DNA from: a virus
Lineage: Duplodnaviria > Heunggongvirae > Uroviricota > Caudoviricetes
IMG/VR virus record: IMGVR_UViG_2654587792_000005
Location: 1 to 7,936 of that record
Direction: 5' to 3' (one strand)
Length of the DNA stretch: 7,936 bases
Shown: in pieces, positions 1 through 7,936 of the stretch
Position numbering within the stretch: the stretch's first letter is position 1
How the letters are laid out: each line of letters starts with the position of its first letter
The notes under the pieces: model-generated
Databases searched by the model: none
What the model saw: only the letters and a program-made list of their open reading frames with translations
What the model was told of the DNA's origin: nothing
Made by a program: the position numbers and the translations under genes

Positions 1-411
1 GCTATCCTCCAGCAGGGAGTGATGGCTAACGGCGATTTCTTTGATGAACGCCACGGCCTGGACTGGTTACAGAATTATGTGCAGACCAACCTCTATAACC
101 TGCTTTATACCAGCACCACGAAAGTTCCCCAGACTGAAGCCGGTATTACCCGACTGTTATCAAATGTTGAAAAATCACTGGATCAGGCCGTTCAGAATGG
201 ACTGATTGCTCCGGGCGTATGGAACGGGGGCGACCTTGGTCAGTTGTCATCAGGTGACACACTGCCCAAAGGTTATTACGTATACGCCCAGCCGCTGGAT
301 GAACAGGCACAATCAGAACGTGAAGCCCGTAAGGCTCCGGTGATTCAGGCTGCAATAAAACTTGCAGGCGCGGTTCATTACGCTGACGTACAGATTAACG
401 TTGTTCGCTAA
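1..411 (+). CDS. Contractile tail sheath protein, C-terminal part (5-prime end lies upstream of the window)
   Basis: The frame is open from nt 1 ([15 protein letters not shown]...), so the GTG at 19 and ATG at 22 are probably internal codons. Stop TAA 409-411. It lies immediately upstream of the tube, chaperone-with-frameshift and tape measure genes, the canonical sheath position. The call rests on synteny, not on a recognised catalytic motif. Confidence 0.55.
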
Positions 412-421
412 GGGGAAGTGA

Positions 422-862
422 ATGTCTACCTATTCTTTTATGGATGTCACTGCGACGCTGACCGGCCCGACCGGTTCGATTGACCTCGGGTACGGTTCTG
501 CAAGTTCTGAAGAGGGGATTGTGGTTGCGATGGGCGGTCCTAAAAACACCATGACCATCGGTGCTGATGGTGAAGTGATGCACAGCCTCCATGCAGATAA
601 AAGCGGGACGATTACCGTTAACCTTCTGAAGACATCACCGACAAATAAAAAATTGTCGCTGGCGTATAACGCACAGAGCCAGTCTTCTGCCACATGGGGG
701 AATAACGTTATCGTGATCCGCAACAAGGTCAGCGGCGACATCATCACGGCACGCAGTGTTGCGTTCCAGAAACAACCGGATAATGCCAACGCTAAAACCG
801 GTAATACGATGCCGTGGGTGTTTGACTGCGGCAAGATTGACCAGGTTCTCGGGGAGTTTTAA
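422..862 (+). CDS. Tail tube protein (146 aa)
   Basis: ATG 422 follows a purine-rich RBS (AGGGGAAG, 411-418) and the sheath stop by 10 nt. Size and position directly upstream of the chaperone gene are typical of a myovirus tube protein. Stop TAA 860-862. Confidence 0.6.
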   Translation: MSTYSFMDVTATLTGPTGSIDLGYGSASSEEGIVVAMGGPKNTMTIGADGEVMHSLHADKSGTITVNLLKTSPTNKKLSLAYNAQSQSSATWGNNVIVIRNKVSGDIITARSVAFQKQPDNANAKTGNTMPWVFDCGKIDQVLGEF

Positions 863-865
863 TAC

Positions 866-1321
866 ATGGAATTCGAAATCAAAGGCGTGAAATATCGCGT
901 GGCAAAACTCAGCGTTTTTGACCAGCTGAAAGTGACCCGCAAACTTCTGCCGGTGGTACTGGCGGGAATGATGTCAGATTTCGGGAGCATTCGCTCCCGT
1001 TTGCCTGCTGACGGCAAAATCGACACCGTGAAATTCGAGCAGTTAAAACCGGTGTTTGAAACCATGCTCCCGCGTATCGCTGAGGAACTGTCTTCCCTGA
1101 CCGAAGATGACACCGATGCGATTATTCATCCCTGTCTTGCGGTGGTATCGCGGCGTCATATGGACGGATGGGTGCCGGTATTTACCCAGGGCGAACTGAT
1201 GTTTGATGATATTGACCTGCTGGTCATGCTGCAGCTGGTGGCGCGGGTGGTCGCCGATTCGCTGGGAAATTTTTTGCCTACACCCCTTACCAGCACGACG
1301 CAGAGCCTGCAACAGGGCTGA
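866..1321 (+). CDS. Tail assembly chaperone, short in-frame product (151 aa; gpG / P2 gpE analogue)
   Basis: ATG 866 has GGGGAG (851-856) 9 nt upstream. It is a small protein directly upstream of the tape measure gene and carries a slippery site near its 3-prime end. Stop TGA 1319-1321. Confidence 0.7.
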   Translation: MEFEIKGVKYRVAKLSVFDQLKVTRKLLPVVLAGMMSDFGSIRSRLPADGKIDTVKFEQLKPVFETMLPRIAEELSSLTEDDTDAIIHPCLAVVSRRHMDGWVPVFTQGELMFDDIDLLVMLQLVARVVADSLGNFLPTPLTSTTQSLQQG

Positions 1322-1518
1322 CGTTTAACAGCCTGCCGGACGGGCTGTCCTACCTTCTCAATCCGGTTGACGCCGGGTTAATTCCTTATACAGCACTTAA
1401 AGATGGCTCTGTCGATTTGTACGACATTGCTCTCTTGAATGACCATCTGGCGGTAAAAGCGGATAACCAGCGGCGCATTGAGAAATGGAGAGAGGATAAT
1501 GAACGCCGAGACTATTAA
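866..1518 (+). CDS. Tail assembly chaperone, -1 frameshift fusion product (about 217 aa; gpGT / P2 gpE+E-prime analogue)
   Basis: After the slippery run at 1264-1276 the -1 frame has no stop for 82 codons (FFAYTPYQHDAEPATGLTFNSLPDGLSYLLNPVDAGLIPYTALKDGSVDLYDIALLNDHLAVKADNQRRIEKWREDNERRDY), ending at TAA 1516-1518, 17 nt past the tape measure ATG. I translated this by hand; the extension has no start codon, so the ORF track cannot show it. Confidence 0.6.
1264..1276 (+). other. Programmed -1 ribosomal frameshift slippery site (GGGAAAT overlapping TTTTTTG)
   Basis: Sequence GGGAAATTTTTTG. In the chaperone frame the codons are GGA AAT TTT TTG, so both G_GGA_AAT (1264-1270) and T_TTT_TTG (1270-1276) fit the X_XXY_YYZ heptamer rule. 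Phage lambda G/GT uses the closely related G_GGA_AAG. Confidence 0.55.
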
Positions 1519-3487
1519 AGATTTCCTCGTCTCGCTTGGCTTCAGTGTGGATGATGCAGGAGCGAAAAAATTCGGTTCTGTCCTCGCCGGTACAACTGCA
1601 AATGTCATCAAAATGGGGCTGGCCGTCGAAGGAGCGGCGCTGTCCGTGGTGGCCTTCACGGCTAAGATCGCCTCCGGCCTGGATAATCTTTACTGGGCGT
1701 CACAGCGCACCGGCGCGACAGTCCAGGGAATTCAGTCTATTGGCTATGCGGTTTCGCAGGTTGGCGGCAGCGTGGACGCTGCGCGATCTTCTCTGGAAAA
1801 CCTCTCCCGGTTTATTCGTAATAATCCCGGGGCGGAGGGATTTCTGAATCGTCTGGGGGTACAGACACGGGATGCCAGCGGTAACATGCGTGACATGGCC
1901 GCTATTTTTACAGGGGTAGGCCAGAAGCTCAGCGACATGCCGTATTACCGTGCTAACCAGTATGCGCAGATGCTGGGCATTGACGAAAATACCCTGTTGG
2001 CTATGCGTCGCGGTGTGGGTGGCTTCTCCGGGCAGTACAGCGCAATGGCGAAAGCTATCGGCTTCAATGCTGACGAGGCGGCCAGAAGCTCCAACAAATT
2101 TATGACCTCCCTGCGTGAGTTTGGCGCGATGGCAGGCATGGCCCGTGACAAAATCGGCTCTAATCTTGCGGGTGGGCTTGCGGGTTCGCTGGACACACTG
2201 CGCCGCCATATCCTGGACAACTTCCCGCGTATCGAGCAGACCCTGACGAAAGCCATAAAAGGCATTCTGGCGCTCGGGGATATTATCGGGCGGCTGTTCT
2301 TCAGACTGATTGAGGGGACATCAGGCCTCATCACCTGGTGGCAATCGCTGGATAAGCAAACGCGGGAGTTGATCTCGCTGTTTGGCGCACTGACGATTGC
2401 GCTGCGCATTCTGAACAGTACGTTCTGGATGTCGCCGATTGGCCTCATTACCGCGCTGGCGGCGGGGATTGCCCTCCTGTGGGAGGACTATCAGACCTGG
2501 AAGGAAGGCGGCGACAGCCTGATTGACTGGGGCAAGTGGAAACCGGAGGTTGATGCCGCGCTGAAGATGGTTCGTGACCTTAAAACGACCGTTAACGACC
2601 TGGTGAAAGCGCTGGCGAAACTGCTCAATATTGACCCCAAATCATGGTCCCTGAAGTGGGATTTCAGCAACTTCATCGACCAGATGGGCGAATTCAGCAA
2701 AATGCTGAACATGATCGCCGACCTGCTCAACGCTATCAAAGATGGCCGCTGGGCTGATGCCGTCAGCATCGGCAAACAGATACTTAATCAGGGCAGCGAA
2801 AATCCGTCAGCGATGCCGATGGTTACAGACAGCGCTAACAGTACTGCCGACTGGATTAAAGAGCACTGGGGATTTGATCCCCGCAGTGTGGGCCGGACGG
2901 TACGCGGCTGGTTTGGTGATGATGAGCCGGAACAACATGCACAGGCTACGAAACGAGGAGAACGGAATAACAATCCGGGAAACCTTAATTTTGCTGGTCA
3001 GGCAGGGGCTTCTCTTGAACGCCCGGGCGGGCGATTTGCCAGATTTGAAACTGCCTTTGATGGATTACGGGCTCTTGCTCGTCAGTTAATGCTGTACGCC
3101 GGACGGGGAATAAACAGTGTGGAGAAAATTATCTCTACCTGGGCACCTGCGTCTGATAATAACAACACAACCGCGTATATCAGGGCTGTATCGCAACGAC
3201 TGGGAGTGGATCCCCGGGCTGCCCTGAATATGAGCGATCCGCAAACCATGTCAGCATTGATGAGCAGCATTATCCAGCATGAGAATGGAAGAAATATCTA
3301 TTCTCGGGAGCTGATTAATAAGGCTGCCGTGGCGGGAATTAGTGGCAAAGTGACAGAGGTTAACCAGCAAAATACCTACCACATTTACGGTGGCGGAGAT
3401 CCGCACGCTGTCGGTAATGAGGTTGCACGTCGGCAACAGTCTGCAAATGCTCAGGTCATGCGAAGTAATCAGGTGAGGGTGGGTTAG
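1499..3487 (+). CDS. Tail tape measure protein (663 aa from ATG 1499; the ORF track begins at in-frame TTG 1478)
   Basis: Longest gene in the window, immediately after the chaperone/frameshift gene. ATG 1499 is preceded by GGAGAGAGG (1487-1495). The N-terminal half is Ala/Gly-rich. There is a long hydrophobic segment (LISLFGALTIALRILNSTFWMSPIGLITALAAGIALLW) and a distinct C-terminal module (NNNPGNLNF...IIQHENG). Stop TAG 3485-3487. Confidence 0.8.
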   Translation: MNAETIKDFLVSLGFSVDDAGAKKFGSVLAGTTANVIKMGLAVEGAALSVVAFTAKIASGLDNLYWASQRTGATVQGIQSIGYAVSQVGGSVDAARSSLENLSRFIRNNPGAEGFLNRLGVQTRDASGNMRDMAAIFTGVGQKLSDMPYYRANQYAQMLGIDENTLLAMRRGVGGFSGQYSAMAKAIGFNADEAARSSNKFMTSLREFGAMAGMARDKIGSNLAGGLAGSLDTLRRHILDNFPRIEQTLTKAIKGILALGDIIGRLFFRLIEGTSGLITWWQSLDKQTRELISLFGALTIALRILNSTFWMSPIGLITALAAGIALLWEDYQTWKEGGDSLIDWGKWKPEVDAALKMVRDLKTTVNDLVKALAKLLNIDPKSWSLKWDFSNFIDQMGEFSKMLNMIADLLNAIKDGRWADAVSIGKQILNQGSENPSAMPMVTDSANSTADWIKEHWGFDPRSVGRTVRGWFGDDEPEQHAQATKRGERNNNPGNLNFAGQAGASLERPGGRFARFETAFDGLRALARQLMLYAGRGINSVEKIISTWAPASDNNNTTAYIRAVSQRLGVDPRAALNMSDPQTMSALMSSIIQHENGRNIYSRELINKAAVAGISGKVTEVNQQNTYHIYGGGDPHAVGNEVARRQQSANAQVMRSNQVRVG

Positions 3488-4378: not shown

Positions 4379-5443
4379 ATGACACAGAACTGGATGAGAC
4401 ATTTCGAGCTGCAGCTTGTGGACGGGAACGGTCAGGGAATTGAGCTAAGTGATTTTAAAGTCACCTTTACGATCGACTGGTTCAACATCAGCAGCGCGTC
4501 CCGGGTAGGGACTATCAAAATTTATAACCTCTCGGCAGATACTGTGAACCGAATTACCGGGCAGGAGTTTTCGAAAGTGCGTCTGATTGCGGGTTACGAC
4601 GGTATCGCGCCGGAGGTGTCGGCAAGCGATGTCGGGACCGTGCGGGAGGTTGATGCGGCGGACGTGGGCCAGAGTGATGGCCGCAACTACGGACTGATTT
4701 TCAGCGGTGAAATTCGCTACTCGGTCACAGGAAAAGACAGCCCGGTTGATTCCTACGTCCTGATTCAGGCAGCAGATACTGATCTGGCTTTTGCCACCAG
4801 TATAACCTCACAGACGCTGGCTGCCGGTTACACGGTCGCTGATGTAAACCGTGCGCTGATGAAAGACTTCGAAGCCAAAGGCGCGACCGAAGGCCTGACG
4901 CCTGAAATGCCTGCTACTGTATTCCCCCGGGGGCGGGTACTCTTTGGCATGACGCGGCATCTAATGGATAACGTAGCCGGACAATGTGGCGCAACATGGC
5001 AATTCGTGGACGGTCAGCGCCAGATGGTGGCGAATAACGAATATGTTCACGAAGCGATTGTGCTCAACAGCGCTACCGGGCTTATTGGAATGCCGCAGCA
5101 GACTATCGGTAACGGCGTAAACGTCCGCGCGCTTATTAATCCGAACATCCGGGTTAACGGGCTCATTCAGCTGGATCAGGCTTCCGTCTATCGTACCGCG
5201 TTGTCGAACAACGATATTGCGATGGCTGGTGGTCAGATCACCGACCAGAACACGGACGGAAATATTACGCTAAGCGGCACCACATCGCAGCCTGCCAGCA
5301 TCGCAACGGATGGCGTTTATATTGTTCGCGGGATTATGTACACTGGCGACACAAGGGGCCAGGCGTGGTACATGGATATGATGTGCGAAGCGCGTGGGGC
5401 TAGCGATATACCTAGCCAGTTGGCAATGCAACGGGGAGCGTAA
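4379..5443 (+). CDS. Baseplate hub-like protein (354 aa; assigned by size and synteny)
   Basis: ATG 4379 lies 2 nt after the previous stop, with ACGGAG upstream. A roughly 350-aa protein between the tape measure and spike genes is where gp27/gpD-type hub proteins sit in contractile tails. I did not recognise a specific motif. Stop TAA 5441-5443. Confidence 0.45.
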   Translation: MTQNWMRHFELQLVDGNGQGIELSDFKVTFTIDWFNISSASRVGTIKIYNLSADTVNRITGQEFSKVRLIAGYDGIAPEVSASDVGTVREVDAADVGQSDGRNYGLIFSGEIRYSVTGKDSPVDSYVLIQAADTDLAFATSITSQTLAAGYTVADVNRALMKDFEAKGATEGLTPEMPATVFPRGRVLFGMTRHLMDNVAGQCGATWQFVDGQRQMVANNEYVHEAIVLNSATGLIGMPQQTIGNGVNVRALINPNIRVNGLIQLDQASVYRTALSNNDIAMAGGQITDQNTDGNITLSGTTSQPASIATDGVYIVRGIMYTGDTRGQAWYMDMMCEARGASDIPSQLAMQRGA

Positions 5444-5445
5444 GC

Positions 5446-5907
5446 GTGAAAAAACAGGTGATAGTTGCAATAACGATGCTGATTTCTACGACTTCTTTTG
5501 CCGAACCAGGTAAGTTTGAATTTAAAGCAGCCGACCTGATGGAGCAGCAAAAGTTTACGGAATGGCAACATTACGCATCTGTGAAGCCTTTTTTCTCAAT
5601 GAATGGGCGACGTTTTACAATGACCTTAGATGATTTCGCTGACATCATCAGGAACACATTCCAGCAATGTAATGATTTGGACGCATACACCAACCGCAAA
5701 GGAACCCGGGATTCTTGTCAGGAATATATTTACAACGGTATGAAAGAGTGGATAAAACTGTCAAAGGATCCTAGTGTTAGTCCGCAAGCATGGAAAATTG
5801 GTGCTAGATATGCTTTCAACACAAATAATCCTGTCCCCGGTAGTAATGTGATTGATTTTAATGGTTGGGCTGGTGGTATTCGTGTTGCAAAATCAAAAGG
5901 GTTCTAA
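5446..5907 (+). CDS. Secreted or periplasmic protein of unknown function with N-terminal signal peptide (153 aa); accessory (moron) gene
   Basis: GTG 5446 has GGGGAG (5433-5438) 7 nt upstream and lies 2 nt after the hub stop. The N-terminus MKKQVIVAITMLISTTSFA-EP has two lysines, a hydrophobic core and a probable SFA cleavage site. The mature part has two Cys (QQCNDLD, DSCQEY). Hand-counted GC is about 38% at 5461-5520, versus about 58% at 2401-2460 in the tape measure gene. Confidence 0.6.
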   Translation: MKKQVIVAITMLISTTSFAEPGKFEFKAADLMEQQKFTEWQHYASVKPFFSMNGRRFTMTLDDFADIIRNTFQQCNDLDAYTNRKGTRDSCQEYIYNGMKEWIKLSKDPSVSPQAWKIGARYAFNTNNPVPGSNVIDFNGWAGGIRVAKSKGF

Positions 5908-6022
5908 TGGCACTAGAGTAGAAAATCCTCGATTTTTCAGGGAAATGGGCTCGTAGTAAAATCTAGAGATTCATTTTCTAAGGGGGATTTTGTGCGAAAC
6001 TACTAAGTAGACCAGATGTGGA

Positions 6023-6052
6023 TTGACTAAACTGTATACGCGAACATAAAAT
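6023..6052 (+). promoter_or_regulatory. Candidate sigma70-type promoter for the two-gene operon
   Basis: TTGACT (6023-6028), an 18-nt spacer, then TAAAAT (6047-6052), in the AT-rich 173-bp intergenic region about 30 nt upstream of GTG 6081. Sequence match only. Confidence 0.4.
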
Positions 6053-6080
6053 CTGACAAAAAATAAGTAGTGAGTGAACT

Positions 6081-6851
6081 GTGGCGAGACCAAAACTAAA
6101 AGCCGAAGAGCGTTTTGACCAGTTGATTAATGTAATCAACAGTGGGGAGCCACTTGATATGTGGACTTTCCGAGAAGTGGTTTCGGAGTATGGTTCTAAT
6201 CATACTCCTATGGCTGAAGCACTTGTAGCGTTGGCTTATATAGCTAAGGGTGAGGTGCTCTTTGGGATTGAGTCGCTTGAGGTCATCCTTCCACATGCTG
6301 ACGTTAATTTCGCACGGATCTTTTGTAAACTTCTCGAGCGATTTTCTCTACTCGAAAAACTGGATTACTACATATATTCTTTAGCTGATAAGTTTCCTAC
6401 AAAGTGGTTTACTTACAAAGCTGGCGGCGTTGCGTACTTGGTAGGGAAACTATCGAAATGCGTGGAGTATTTAGGGCGTCATTGCAAAATGTTATCCGAA
6501 GAAGAGCATAGGGATGACGCAGAAACCTTCTTGCAGGAGGTAATTAACGATATGGATGAAGCTTATAAAAATTCAGGGTGCTCTTCAGAGCAATATAGGC
6601 AAGTTGCCTTGGCTGTGCACAGAGTTATGGCTGAATTCCCGTCAACTGAATATCGCGCGGACATTAACGGGGCGTCTGGTGGAACGTATTTGGTTGAGGT
6701 GGTTAAGGCGTCTCCAGAGCGGGTTGTTGCAATGAATATGCGACTTGCTGATGAAATCTGCTCGATCGATTTGCTTGATGATTGTAACCTGATAGCAAGA
6801 TTTTCCGTTGAAAGAAATGGATTAAAAGAGTGTAAATATGCCTATAACTAG
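6081..6851 (+). CDS. Hypothetical protein, first gene of accessory two-gene operon (256 aa from GTG 6081, or 230 aa from ATG 6159); putative HEPN-like partner or effector
   Basis: Low-GC ORF (about 42% by hand count at 6081-6140). GTG 6081 has a weak RBS, whereas the in-frame ATG at 6159 has GGGGAG (6144-6149) 9 nt upstream, so the true start is uncertain. The C-terminal half contains YRQVALAVH (R173-x6-H180, nt 6597-6620), preceded by the acidic helix DAETFLQEVINDMDEAYKN. The stop TAG 6849-6851 overlaps the next gene by 14 nt. Confidence 0.55.
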   Translation: MARPKLKAEERFDQLINVINSGEPLDMWTFREVVSEYGSNHTPMAEALVALAYIAKGEVLFGIESLEVILPHADVNFARIFCKLLERFSLLEKLDYYIYSLADKFPTKWFTYKAGGVAYLVGKLSKCVEYLGRHCKMLSEEEHRDDAETFLQEVINDMDEAYKNSGCSSEQYRQVALAVHRVMAEFPSTEYRADINGASGGTYLVEVVKASPERVVAMNMRLADEICSIDLLDDCNLIARFSVERNGLKECKYAYN

Positions 6852-7233
6852 TTCTGAGTTTTTGTCTTCGGCCGAACGTTGTTTTGCTGAAGATTGTGAG
6901 ATTGGTTATCGTAATGCTATTTCACGAGCATATTACGCTCTCTACCATGAAATTAAAGATAATCTAACTAGTCTTCCTGCTTATACTCGGGATCATCATG
7001 CCAGCCTTATCTCTTATCTTAAAAATAAGGGAGAAAATAAACTGGAACCCTATGATCCTCGAAGTCTAAAATCTATGGCTTACAAACTTGAGCAACAGAG
7101 GTTAGCTCGGAATGAGGCTGATTATGATTTAAGTAGTTGTGGCATAAATAAAGCAATGGCACAACAATCAATCTTGGAAGTAAAAACAATTTTTTCTCAA
7201 TGGGAACAAATGAAGACTGATGTAGCCGTTTAG
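6838..7233 (+). CDS. Small HEPN-like protein, second gene of accessory two-gene operon (131 aa)
   Basis: ATG 6838 with AAGAG 8 nt upstream, overlapping the upstream gene. The helix SAERCFAEDCEIGYRNAISRAYYALYHEIKD carries R30-x6-H37 (nt 6925-6948). A second His pair follows (DHHASLISYL), then a C-terminal helix QQRLARNEADYD. From memory this resembles canonical HEPN-domain proteins; the domain call is unverified. Stop TAG 7231-7233. Confidence 0.5.
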   Translation: MPITSSEFLSSAERCFAEDCEIGYRNAISRAYYALYHEIKDNLTSLPAYTRDHHASLISYLKNKGENKLEPYDPRSLKSMAYKLEQQRLARNEADYDLSSCGINKAMAQQSILEVKTIFSQWEQMKTDVAV

Positions 7234-7252
7234 GTCTAACTGATTTATTAAT

Positions 7253-7280
7253 AAAAACCCGCCACTTGGCGGGTTTTTTG
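7253..7280 (+). terminator. Rho-independent terminator (A-tract, GC stem-loop, T-tract; potentially bidirectional)
   Basis: AAAAA-CCCGCC-ACTT-GGCGGG-TTTTTTG: a perfect 6-bp all-GC stem (7258-7263 with 7268-7273), a 4-nt loop, then six T. It lies 20 nt after the HEPN-like gene stop; the flanking A-tract would allow function on the opposite strand too. Confidence 0.8.
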
Positions 7281-7298
7281 CTTTCTGGAGCCTACTAA

Positions 7299-7936
7299 AT
7301 GGCAGTATCTGACCAGACCCGCAGCGGCGACCTTGCCGAAACATTCAAATCTGAACGGGAAACAACAAAGAACCAGATCCGTGTCGCCTTGCCTGGCATT
7401 ATTCAGTCATTCGATCCTGATGCGGTGACGGCAGTTGTGCAGCCTGCTATCCGTTCGGTTGAAAAGGATAATGACGGCAACCGCATTACCCAAAATTACC
7501 CATTGCTGGTGGATGTGCCAGTGGTATTCCCGCGTGGCGGAGGCTGTACGCTAACGTTTCCAGTTAAAGCCGGTGATGAATGTTTGGTGATTTTTGCCGA
7601 TCGTTGTATTGATTTCTGGTGGCAGAGTGGCGGGATACAGGAGCCGGTCGATGACAGAATGCATGATTTATCGGATGCGTTTTGTATTGTCGGTCCCCAG
7701 TCGCAGGCAAGGAAGATTAGCGGTATTAATACCAGTGCCACACAGTTGCGTAGTGATGACGGCAGCACCTATTTTGAGCTTAATCCTGATACCAGGAAAA
7801 TTAAAATTGTCGCTCCGGGGGGCCTTGATGTGGTTGCCCCTCTGGCTGATTTTTCTGAGAAAGTAACCATTCATGGCCTGTTAACCTGGATGGGAGGCAT
7901 GGTGGGGTCTGTTGTTTCTGGTGTGGCTTCAAAAAT
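7299..7936 (+). CDS. Baseplate central spike-like protein (gpV / gp138-like), N-terminal part; 3-prime end beyond window
   Basis: ATG 7299 has GGAG (7287-7290) 8 nt upstream. The frame has no stop over 212 codons to the window end (hand translation: MAVSDQTRSGDLAETFKSERETTKNQIRVALPGIIQSFDPDAVTAVVQPAI...LVDVPVVFPRGGGCTLTFPVKAGDECLVIFADRCIDFWWQSGG...). The ORF track omits it because it has no stop. GC returns to the tail-module level. The spike call rests on position after the hub gene and on a remembered N-terminal pattern, so it is tentative. Confidence 0.5.
   Translation, partial: MAVSDQTRSGDLAETFKSERETTKNQIRVALPGIIQSFDPDAVTAVVQPAIRSVEKDNDGNRITQNYPLLVDVPVVFPRGGGCTLTFPVKAGDECLVIFADRCIDFWWQSGGIQEPVDDRMHDLSDAFCIVGPQSQARKISGINTSATQLRSDDGSTYFELNPDTRKIKIVAPGGLDVVAPLADFSEKVTIHGLLTWMGGMVGSVVSGVASK

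Follow-up and report, generated by a model that had tools for sequence, protein, structure and literature searches.

The window analysed here, a stretch of 7,936 nucleotides (nt) of viral DNA (IMG/VR record IMGVR_UViG_2654587792_000005), holds among its phage tail genes a two-gene cassette, whose genes we call A and B. The cassette is a real, conserved but rare prophage unit. Its downstream product, protein B, carries a HEPN domain of the AF0298/UPF0332 (HEPN-T) type and is a putative ribonuclease (RNase) effector. Judged by its structural model, the upstream product, protein A, is non-enzymatic and consists of TPR-like helices in an array, to which a small alpha/beta domain is added at the C-terminus; it is a putative antitoxin or sensor partner of B. 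An earlier note on this DNA had suspected HEPN-like helices in both products; the suspicion holds for B but not for A. Bacterial immunity commonly employs HEPN nucleases as effectors, and we read A and B, with a probability of about 0.55, as a module of a HEPN toxin and its protein partner that travels as prophage cargo and serves abortive infection or prophage addiction. Its novelty would lie in the partner, a novel non-enzymatic protein instead of the usual nucleotidyltransferase.

A HEPN protein and its TPR-like partner

Protein B shows the four-helix up-down fold of HEPN domains, and HepT structures are among its fold matches. A profile built from 27 diverse relatives of B and run against the PDB retrieved 9xbd, a 'HEPN domain-containing protein', with an E value of 6e-12 and AF0298 (2hsb, UPF0332) with 1.3e-8, while 6 of 12 close relatives match the Pfam HEPN family PF05168 (best E 2e-6). 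The HEPN assignment that the earlier note had given to the 131-residue product is thus borne out by profile, fold, and the Pfam matches of its relatives. The B family comprises approximately 116 clusters at 90% identity, and its named members come nearly all from Enterobacterales and Aeromonas.

The key conserved residues of B are E21, R25, N26, R30, Y32, Y33, H37, H54, R91, D95, and Y96. Among these, R25, Y32, Y33, R91, D95, and Y96 are invariant over the 27 relatives and E21, R30, and H37 nearly so, whereas H54 is invariant among the relatives that are paired with an A gene. At the position of the canonical Rx4-6H motif, B carries RNEADY (R91...D95-Y96), and the histidine is absent. The only R-x4-6-H of B is R30...H37, the motif on which the earlier note had relied. 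It is indeed conserved, but it is located in helix 2 and is not the counterpart of the HEPN motif, a role that falls to RNEADY; a single match of this kind also arises by chance in 39% of shuffled B sequences.

A lost histidine is not foreign to the HEPN superfamily. In the AF0298-like HEPN-T clade the histidine of Rx4-6H has been lost, often with an aspartate in its place, an alternative conserved histidine is supplied by an insert between helices 2 and 3, and an acidic residue of helix 2 lies near the site (PMC3710099). The counterparts in B are R91...D95 at the end of the helix spanning residues 74-94, H54 in the insert at 42-73, and E21 in helix 2. With D95 for the histidine, H54, and E21 all fitting the pattern, B qualifies, as judged from its sequence, as a member of this clade. 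No biochemical study of the AF0298/UPF0332 clade was found in the literature searched. The closest solved HEPN structure is represented by two PDB entries, 9xbd and 9xbc, that differ by a tyrosine-to-phenylalanine exchange in the motif RNRSDY, at the equivalent of Y96 of B, which suggests that the depositors probed that tyrosine.

Protein A could be modeled with AlphaFold2 at a predicted local distance difference test score of 89.4, the model showing ten helices over residues 8-185 and, after them, a small domain of beta-beta-alpha-alpha-beta order (approximately 191-243). It has no match in Pfam, NCBIfam (likewise empty for B), or PADLOC; its family corresponds to phrog_17809, of unknown function, and its profile retrieved from the PDB sequences only a TPR-like stretch of sub-significant score. 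When 1.84 billion representatives were searched exhaustively with the profile, only 56 family members came up, nearly all of 250-270 amino acids. Over 46 representatives of the family not a single column is invariant, the best-conserved positions being occupied by A, G, L, F, Y, and M plus one asparagine, and a search over the family for a conserved polar or catalytic residue or a nucleotidyltransferase motif saw no such signature. This pattern of conservation is the mark of a scaffold and not of an enzyme.

These features of A also bear on the model of the earlier note, in which both products contribute HEPN-like R-x6-H helices to a heterodimeric RNase. Each sequence does contain one R-x6-H, and HEPN RNases act as dimers (PMC13043305). 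In A, however, the two motif residues R173 and H180 vary among close homologues (R/M/K and H/S/G/D, respectively), and a match is expected by chance, occurring in 56% of shuffled A sequences. Together with the TPR-like fold, the missing HEPN match, and the lack of any invariant or conserved polar residue over the family, this makes the heterodimer hardly credible, and the motif claimed for the 256-residue product falls with it.

Two candidate identities for A were tried and rejected. As a HEPN protein it is contradicted by its TPR-like fold, the absence of a HEPN match, and the poor conservation of its R-x6-H. As a degenerate MNT it fails because its GASGG stretch and acidic residues are not conserved over the family and its C-terminal domain is a beta-hairpin/helix/strand unit and not a nucleotidyltransferase core. 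That the pair has no MNT partner, as the earlier note had remarked, agrees with the absence of any nucleotidyltransferase match or motif in A.

A mobile pair in a prophage cargo slot

Both genes coincide with coding sequences in RefSeq, where they are named hypothetical proteins, which confirms the reading frames and the overlap as first described (Table 1). Compared with the copies in Escherichia coli E2348/69 (85% identical), gene A has a ratio of nonsynonymous to synonymous substitution rates of 0.08 and gene B one of 0.05; both are thus real genes under strong purifying selection.

Table 1. Positions in the window of the cassette, its signals, and the genes bordering it
Feature	Positions	Strand	Basis or remark
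Gene A, 256 amino acids, GTG start	6081..6851	+	Open reading frame list; same coding sequence in RefSeq
Gene B, 131 amino acids, ATG start	6838..7233	+	Open reading frame list; same coding sequence in RefSeq
Overlap of B start and A stop, 14 nt, ATGCCTATAACTAG	6838..6851	+	Sequence
Sigma70-like promoter match TTGACT-18-TAAAAT	6023..6052	+	10/12 matches; 29 nt upstream of gene A
Intrinsic-terminator hairpin and T-run	7253..7278	+	About 20 nt before spike gene; right border of slot
Baseplate hub gene, left border of variable slot	4379..5443	+	phrog_196 baseplate hub, E 4.5e-88
Low-GC cargo open reading frame, 153 amino acids	5446..5907	+	Open reading frame list; signal-peptide-like N-terminal segment
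Baseplate spike gene, 5' part, leaving the window; right flank	7299..7936	+	RefSeq annotation mapped from L001

We compared 13 cassettes: that of the window and those of loci L002, L004, L006, L008, L009, L012, L013, L016, L023, L026, L028, and L030. An A-family gene stands directly upstream of a B-family gene in all 13. In 10 of them the genes overlap by 11-17 nt (in L008 if the conserved second ATG is used), with a Shine-Dalgarno-like run before the ATG of B; in L013 they abut, in L028 they are separated by a gap of 15 nt, and in L023 the overlap was not measured. The overlap of the window's pair would point to translational coupling. The pairwise identities of A and B correlate strongly (r = 0.91; Mantel 0/5000), B being the more conserved of the two in 96% of comparisons. 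The pairing is obligate, and the two genes co-diverge. The tightly coupled accessory cassette that the earlier note had proposed within the tail operon is hereby supported.

The start codons deserve a remark. Seven of the 13 A genes (window, L002, L004, L006, L008, L009, and L028) use GTG or TTG as their start, and the Shine-Dalgarno sequence of A is weak; B always begins with ATG, behind a purine-rich run within A. Such start codons are unusual for an upstream, presumed protective gene.

The cassette is not bound to one place. It occupies the same slot between hub and spike genes in Brunovirus-like prophages of Yersinia and others (L004-L007), lies in tail modules of a siphovirus type, where it adjoins an MliC lipoprotein gene (L009), and of the Klebsiella phage ST405-OXA48phi1.3 (L030; MK416008.1), follows a lysis cassette (L013), adjoins the integrase at prophage ends (L016-18 and L023-25), and is found between the arc and ant genes of a P22-like element (L026) and between mor and the lysis genes of a Mu-like phage of Aeromonas veronii, near a TIR-domain gene (L028). 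Its GC content (guanine plus cytosine) over the homologous loci is 0.36-0.45. In these unrelated prophages it sits where morons or defence genes are typically found.

Such a spread speaks against A and B being tail-assembly or virion proteins of the phage lineage, for instance a TPR-like chaperone for a baseplate component. A conserved structural role, which the earlier note had listed among the outcomes that would refute its idea, is very improbable, since SEN34 and most related prophages that share the hub and spike genes lack the pair, which elsewhere recurs next to integrases, within the ant region, and in the early/lysis region of a Mu-like phage, has a foreign GC content, and includes a HEPN domain.

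A few of these loci merit separate mention. In L030 an intact 131-residue B homologue (5752-6147) overlaps A and is mis-annotated in GenBank as two small hypothetical open reading frames, and the annotated start of the A homologue looks mis-set. In L028 the gene with the TIR_2 domain (2212-3027) lies on the opposite strand, approximately 1.2 kb upstream of A and B and between gemA and mor, and may be a second cargo gene of defence-like kind. In L031 and L033, the most distant HEPN relatives have upstream partners that are not A-like and match nothing in Pfam, so the A family is specific to the prophage clade of Enterobacterales and Aeromonas. In L033 (5586-7774) and L034 the distant HEPN relatives (P0177) and their different upstream partner stand beside a Gp49/HTH (HigBA-like) pair, with a pair of AAA_15/AAA_21 and DUF4435 genes also nearby. 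The latter pair we take to resemble PARIS, and the neighborhood looks like a defence-island setting.

The DNA of the window comes from an E. coli prophage and matches strains APEC-O117H42, PEC209, and PS1Thumoskin9 with 100% identity. Its tail module, with genes for sheath, tube, chaperone, tape measure, Dit-like protein, plug, hub, spike, and baseplate J, is of the type of the SEN34-like myoviruses, genus Brunovirus. The GC content amounts to approximately 0.52-0.57 in the tail genes vs 0.35-0.46 over approximately 5400-7250, in line with the low GC content that the earlier note had described for the pair. The low-GC insert starts at 5444, directly after the hub gene, and also contains a third gene at 5446-5907; backbone homology picks up again at approximately 7245-7256. 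The hub gene, which has a sub-threshold match to Pfam E217_GP41, is kept in related prophages, and the same hub and spike flanks enclose other small genes in SEN34, ECONIH2, IAI1, 97-3250, and phage 606R2. With its drop in GC, other cargo between the same flanks elsewhere, and a conserved terminator at the border (plus a promoter that is a consensus match only), the region 5444-7250 counts as cargo of foreign origin that occupies a variable slot at the hub/spike junction of a Brunovirus (SEN34-like) E. coli prophage, and A and B are a mobile two-gene module inside it. The spike gene is matched in 266 complete E. coli genomes, 3 of which have the cassette of the window and 7 more its 85% variant.

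The hairpin at the right border had been taken by the earlier note for the cassette's own strong terminator. As a terminator-like hairpin it is real, folding at -19.6 kcal/mol (z = -3.9), but it does not belong to the cassette: the hairpin (ACCCGCC-loop-GGCGGGTTTTTT) is kept in SEN34, ECONIH2, 97-3250, 606R2, and E2348/69 regardless of cargo (it lies directly upstream of the spike gene in L002, L003, L019, L021, and L022). Being kept with differing cargo, it belongs to the phage backbone and marks the hotspot's right border. It represents a terminator within a tail operon, at the edge of a cargo hotspot, where it probably insulates the baseplate genes from transcription of the cargo in lysogens.

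The third gene of the insert encodes a protein with a signal-peptide-like N-terminus (MKKQVIVAITMLISTTSFA/EP) and has no match in Pfam, PADLOC, NCBIfam, or PHROGs. It occupies the place of a secreted protein of approximately 114 amino acids in related prophages, to which it is not homologous. In ECONIH2 (L019, 2786-3492) and likewise in IAI1 (L020), RefSeq shows an apparently empty hub/spike slot, in which we noted an unannotated open reading frame of 176 amino acids that has hydrophobic, membrane-like stretches, and another of 59 amino acids; these may be other cargo of the same hotspot. No repeats were found over 5400-7400, and no RNA family was detected by Rfam at gathering thresholds in the whole window, which accordingly gives no sign of an RNA antitoxin.

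How the module might work

The toxin-antitoxin/abortive-infection idea is the best reading of the pair and is strengthened by the genomic contexts, but its function is one that we infer. In the mechanism we propose, B would be a dimeric RNase with the variant site of its clade, formed by R91 at the end of core helix 3, D95 and Y96 in place of the histidine, H54, and E21. Protein A would be made first, with the translation of B coupled to it, and would bind B and hold it inactive, thus standing in for the MNT nucleotidyltransferase of classical HEPN/MNT pairs. A signal from an infecting phage would then free B, either through capture of a phage protein by the repeat array of A or through loss of A. 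Freed B would cut RNA and thereby abort the infection, so that the lysogen population is protected and/or the prophage stabilized.

Several lines of evidence support this reading. The conserved polar residues of B fit the AF0298-type pattern (PMC3710099), and A combines a TPR-like fold with the lack of a catalytic signature. The pairing is without exception, the genes co-diverge, and their positions are those of morons or defence genes. Moreover, the distribution is patchy (approximately 10 of 266 genomes), GC is low, and in 9 of 12 loci B is followed, at a distance of 4-26 nt, by a terminator with a perfect stem. Finally, HEPN defences of prophages are already known in HepS (PMC13043305) and Tha (PMC11087260).

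Other observations weigh against it. The B protein of the window scores only 18.5 bits against Pfam PF05168, below the gathering score of 22, a Foldseek search of B against the PDB returned nothing significant, and in PADLOC there is no model for A and only a marginal partial match of B to HEPN_IX (E 0.003). Type II antitoxins usually have a DNA-binding domain, of which A shows none; A is, moreover, a large and well-folded protein. The promoter that the earlier note had assigned to the cassette is present as a match, and the copy in E2348/69 keeps it, but promoter-like matches in the region are at chance density (5 observed vs 4.9 expected from shuffles), leaving 6023-6052 as a consensus match only. 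Without the canonical histidine of Rx4-6H, B could be a non-catalytic or nucleotide-binding HEPN. This opens the way to an alternative that we consider unlikely, in which B is an inactive HEPN that binds a nucleotide or protein and the pair performs, for example, counter-defence or a modulation of host physiology in lysogeny.

Another alternative stays closer to the proposed module. A and B may form a plain addiction (toxin-antitoxin) module that stabilizes the prophage or is merely selfish and has no role against other phages. The same overlapping two-gene architecture with a HEPN effector, borne on mobile elements, would be expected of it. Nonetheless, defence is the better fit for the recurrent cargo slots near defence-like genes (TIR in L028) and for the surroundings of the distant HEPN relatives in L033, with their PARIS-like and HigBA genes, and the TPR-like partner resembles a protein sensor more than a labile antitoxin, which is why we rate this alternative as quite unlikely, even though sequence data cannot tell an addiction role from a defence role.

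Going further than the HEPN toxin-partner reading preferred here, one may ask whether the cassette founds a new family of prophage-borne immune modules, in which the MNT is replaced, as keeper of an AF0298-type HEPN nuclease, by a TPR-like protein whose C-terminal domain is novel and which also senses a protein of the incoming phage. We put this forward tentatively and would not count on it. Given the frequent location of the cassette in tail modules, the protein sensed in that case is possibly a tail or baseplate component.

If the toxin-partner reading is true, the cassette is a compact and genetically tractable two-gene system of E. coli, including the well-studied E2348/69, in which one could test the action of a histidine-less HEPN site and the way a repeat protein holds it in check or sets it off. 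Should the immune-module version be true as well, the R...D-Y active site of HEPN proteins without the histidine would gain its first functional and mechanistic handle. A wrong model would leave us with another two hypothetical prophage genes. As a cargo hotspot, the hub/spike junction of SEN34-like prophages is worth mining.

Relation to known HEPN systems

As the earlier note had surmised, the pair may well be undescribed. It fits no model of a described system in PADLOC-DB 2.0.0, no description of it was found under its four RefSeq accessions or its motifs in the literature searched (Brenes & Laub 2025 lying outside the coverage), and its proteins were not found in the supplements of the E. 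coli defence screens DefensePredictor and Vassallo et al. In the proposed reading, the cassette would function like the HEPN toxin systems HepT/MntA, RnlAB/LsoAB, and AbiV, and its architecture (overlap, obligate pairing, and co-divergence) would fit a type II toxin-antitoxin system.

The nearest family is AF0298/UPF0332 HEPN-T itself (PF05168; PDB 2hsb and 9xbd/9xbc), although B is only approximately 17% identical to 2hsb. Members of this family are usually standalone or paired or fused with an MNT, whereas the partner here is a TPR-like protein.

In the HepT/MntA systems (type VII), as in the cassette, two genes overlap, the small HEPN gene being the downstream one, and a conserved tyrosine lies beside the active-site motif (Y96 in B); MntA AMPylates the equivalent tyrosine in HepT (PMC13000451). 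Here, however, the upstream protein is not a nucleotidyltransferase, as it has no GS...DxD/GSx10DxD motif, no Pfam match to nucleotidyltransferases, a TPR-like fold, and no invariant residue, and B is without the histidine of R-phi-xxx-H. Since A lacks the features of a nucleotidyltransferase, neutralization through AMPylation by A is excluded, and with it the defining property of HepT/MntA. RnlA and LsoA, on the other hand, are large multi-domain toxins with a canonical motif, whose antitoxins RnlB and LsoB are small and labile; a sequence relationship of the cassette to RnlA/RnlB or LsoA/LsoB was not detected.

As prophage-encoded HEPN defences, HepS of Gifsy-1 and Tha of Staphylococcus aureus phages are ecologically alike (PMC13043305, PMC11087260). 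Both are single proteins with a canonical RX4-6H and no TPR-like partner gene, HepS being a self-sensing tetramer and Tha being controlled by the antisense-encoded inhibitor Ith. AbiV of Lactococcus has been grouped with AF0298, with the motif histidine lost and an alternative histidine present (PMC3710099), and in structure AF0298 ranks with its nearest neighbours (bioRxiv 10.1101/2024.05.05.592566). Its own paper, in contrast, reports an Rx4-6H motif in the lactococcal protein, which has approximately 200 amino acids and an N-terminal extension, and an RNA (abiV2) is reported as the antitoxin.

For a helical repeat protein that is paired with, or fused to, a HEPN effector there is a precedent in the families LA2681, AbiU2, and C6orf70, which are genomically linked to TPR/Sel1 repeats (PMC3710099); these are other HEPN clades, and the association there comes from comparative genomics only. 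TPR arrays, in turn, serve as sensors of phage proteins in Avs/STAND systems (PMC9122126). Compared with both Avs/STAND and the HEPN-TPR/Sel1 associations, the cassette has no NTPase domain, and its protein A adds a small alpha/beta domain to the repeat array.
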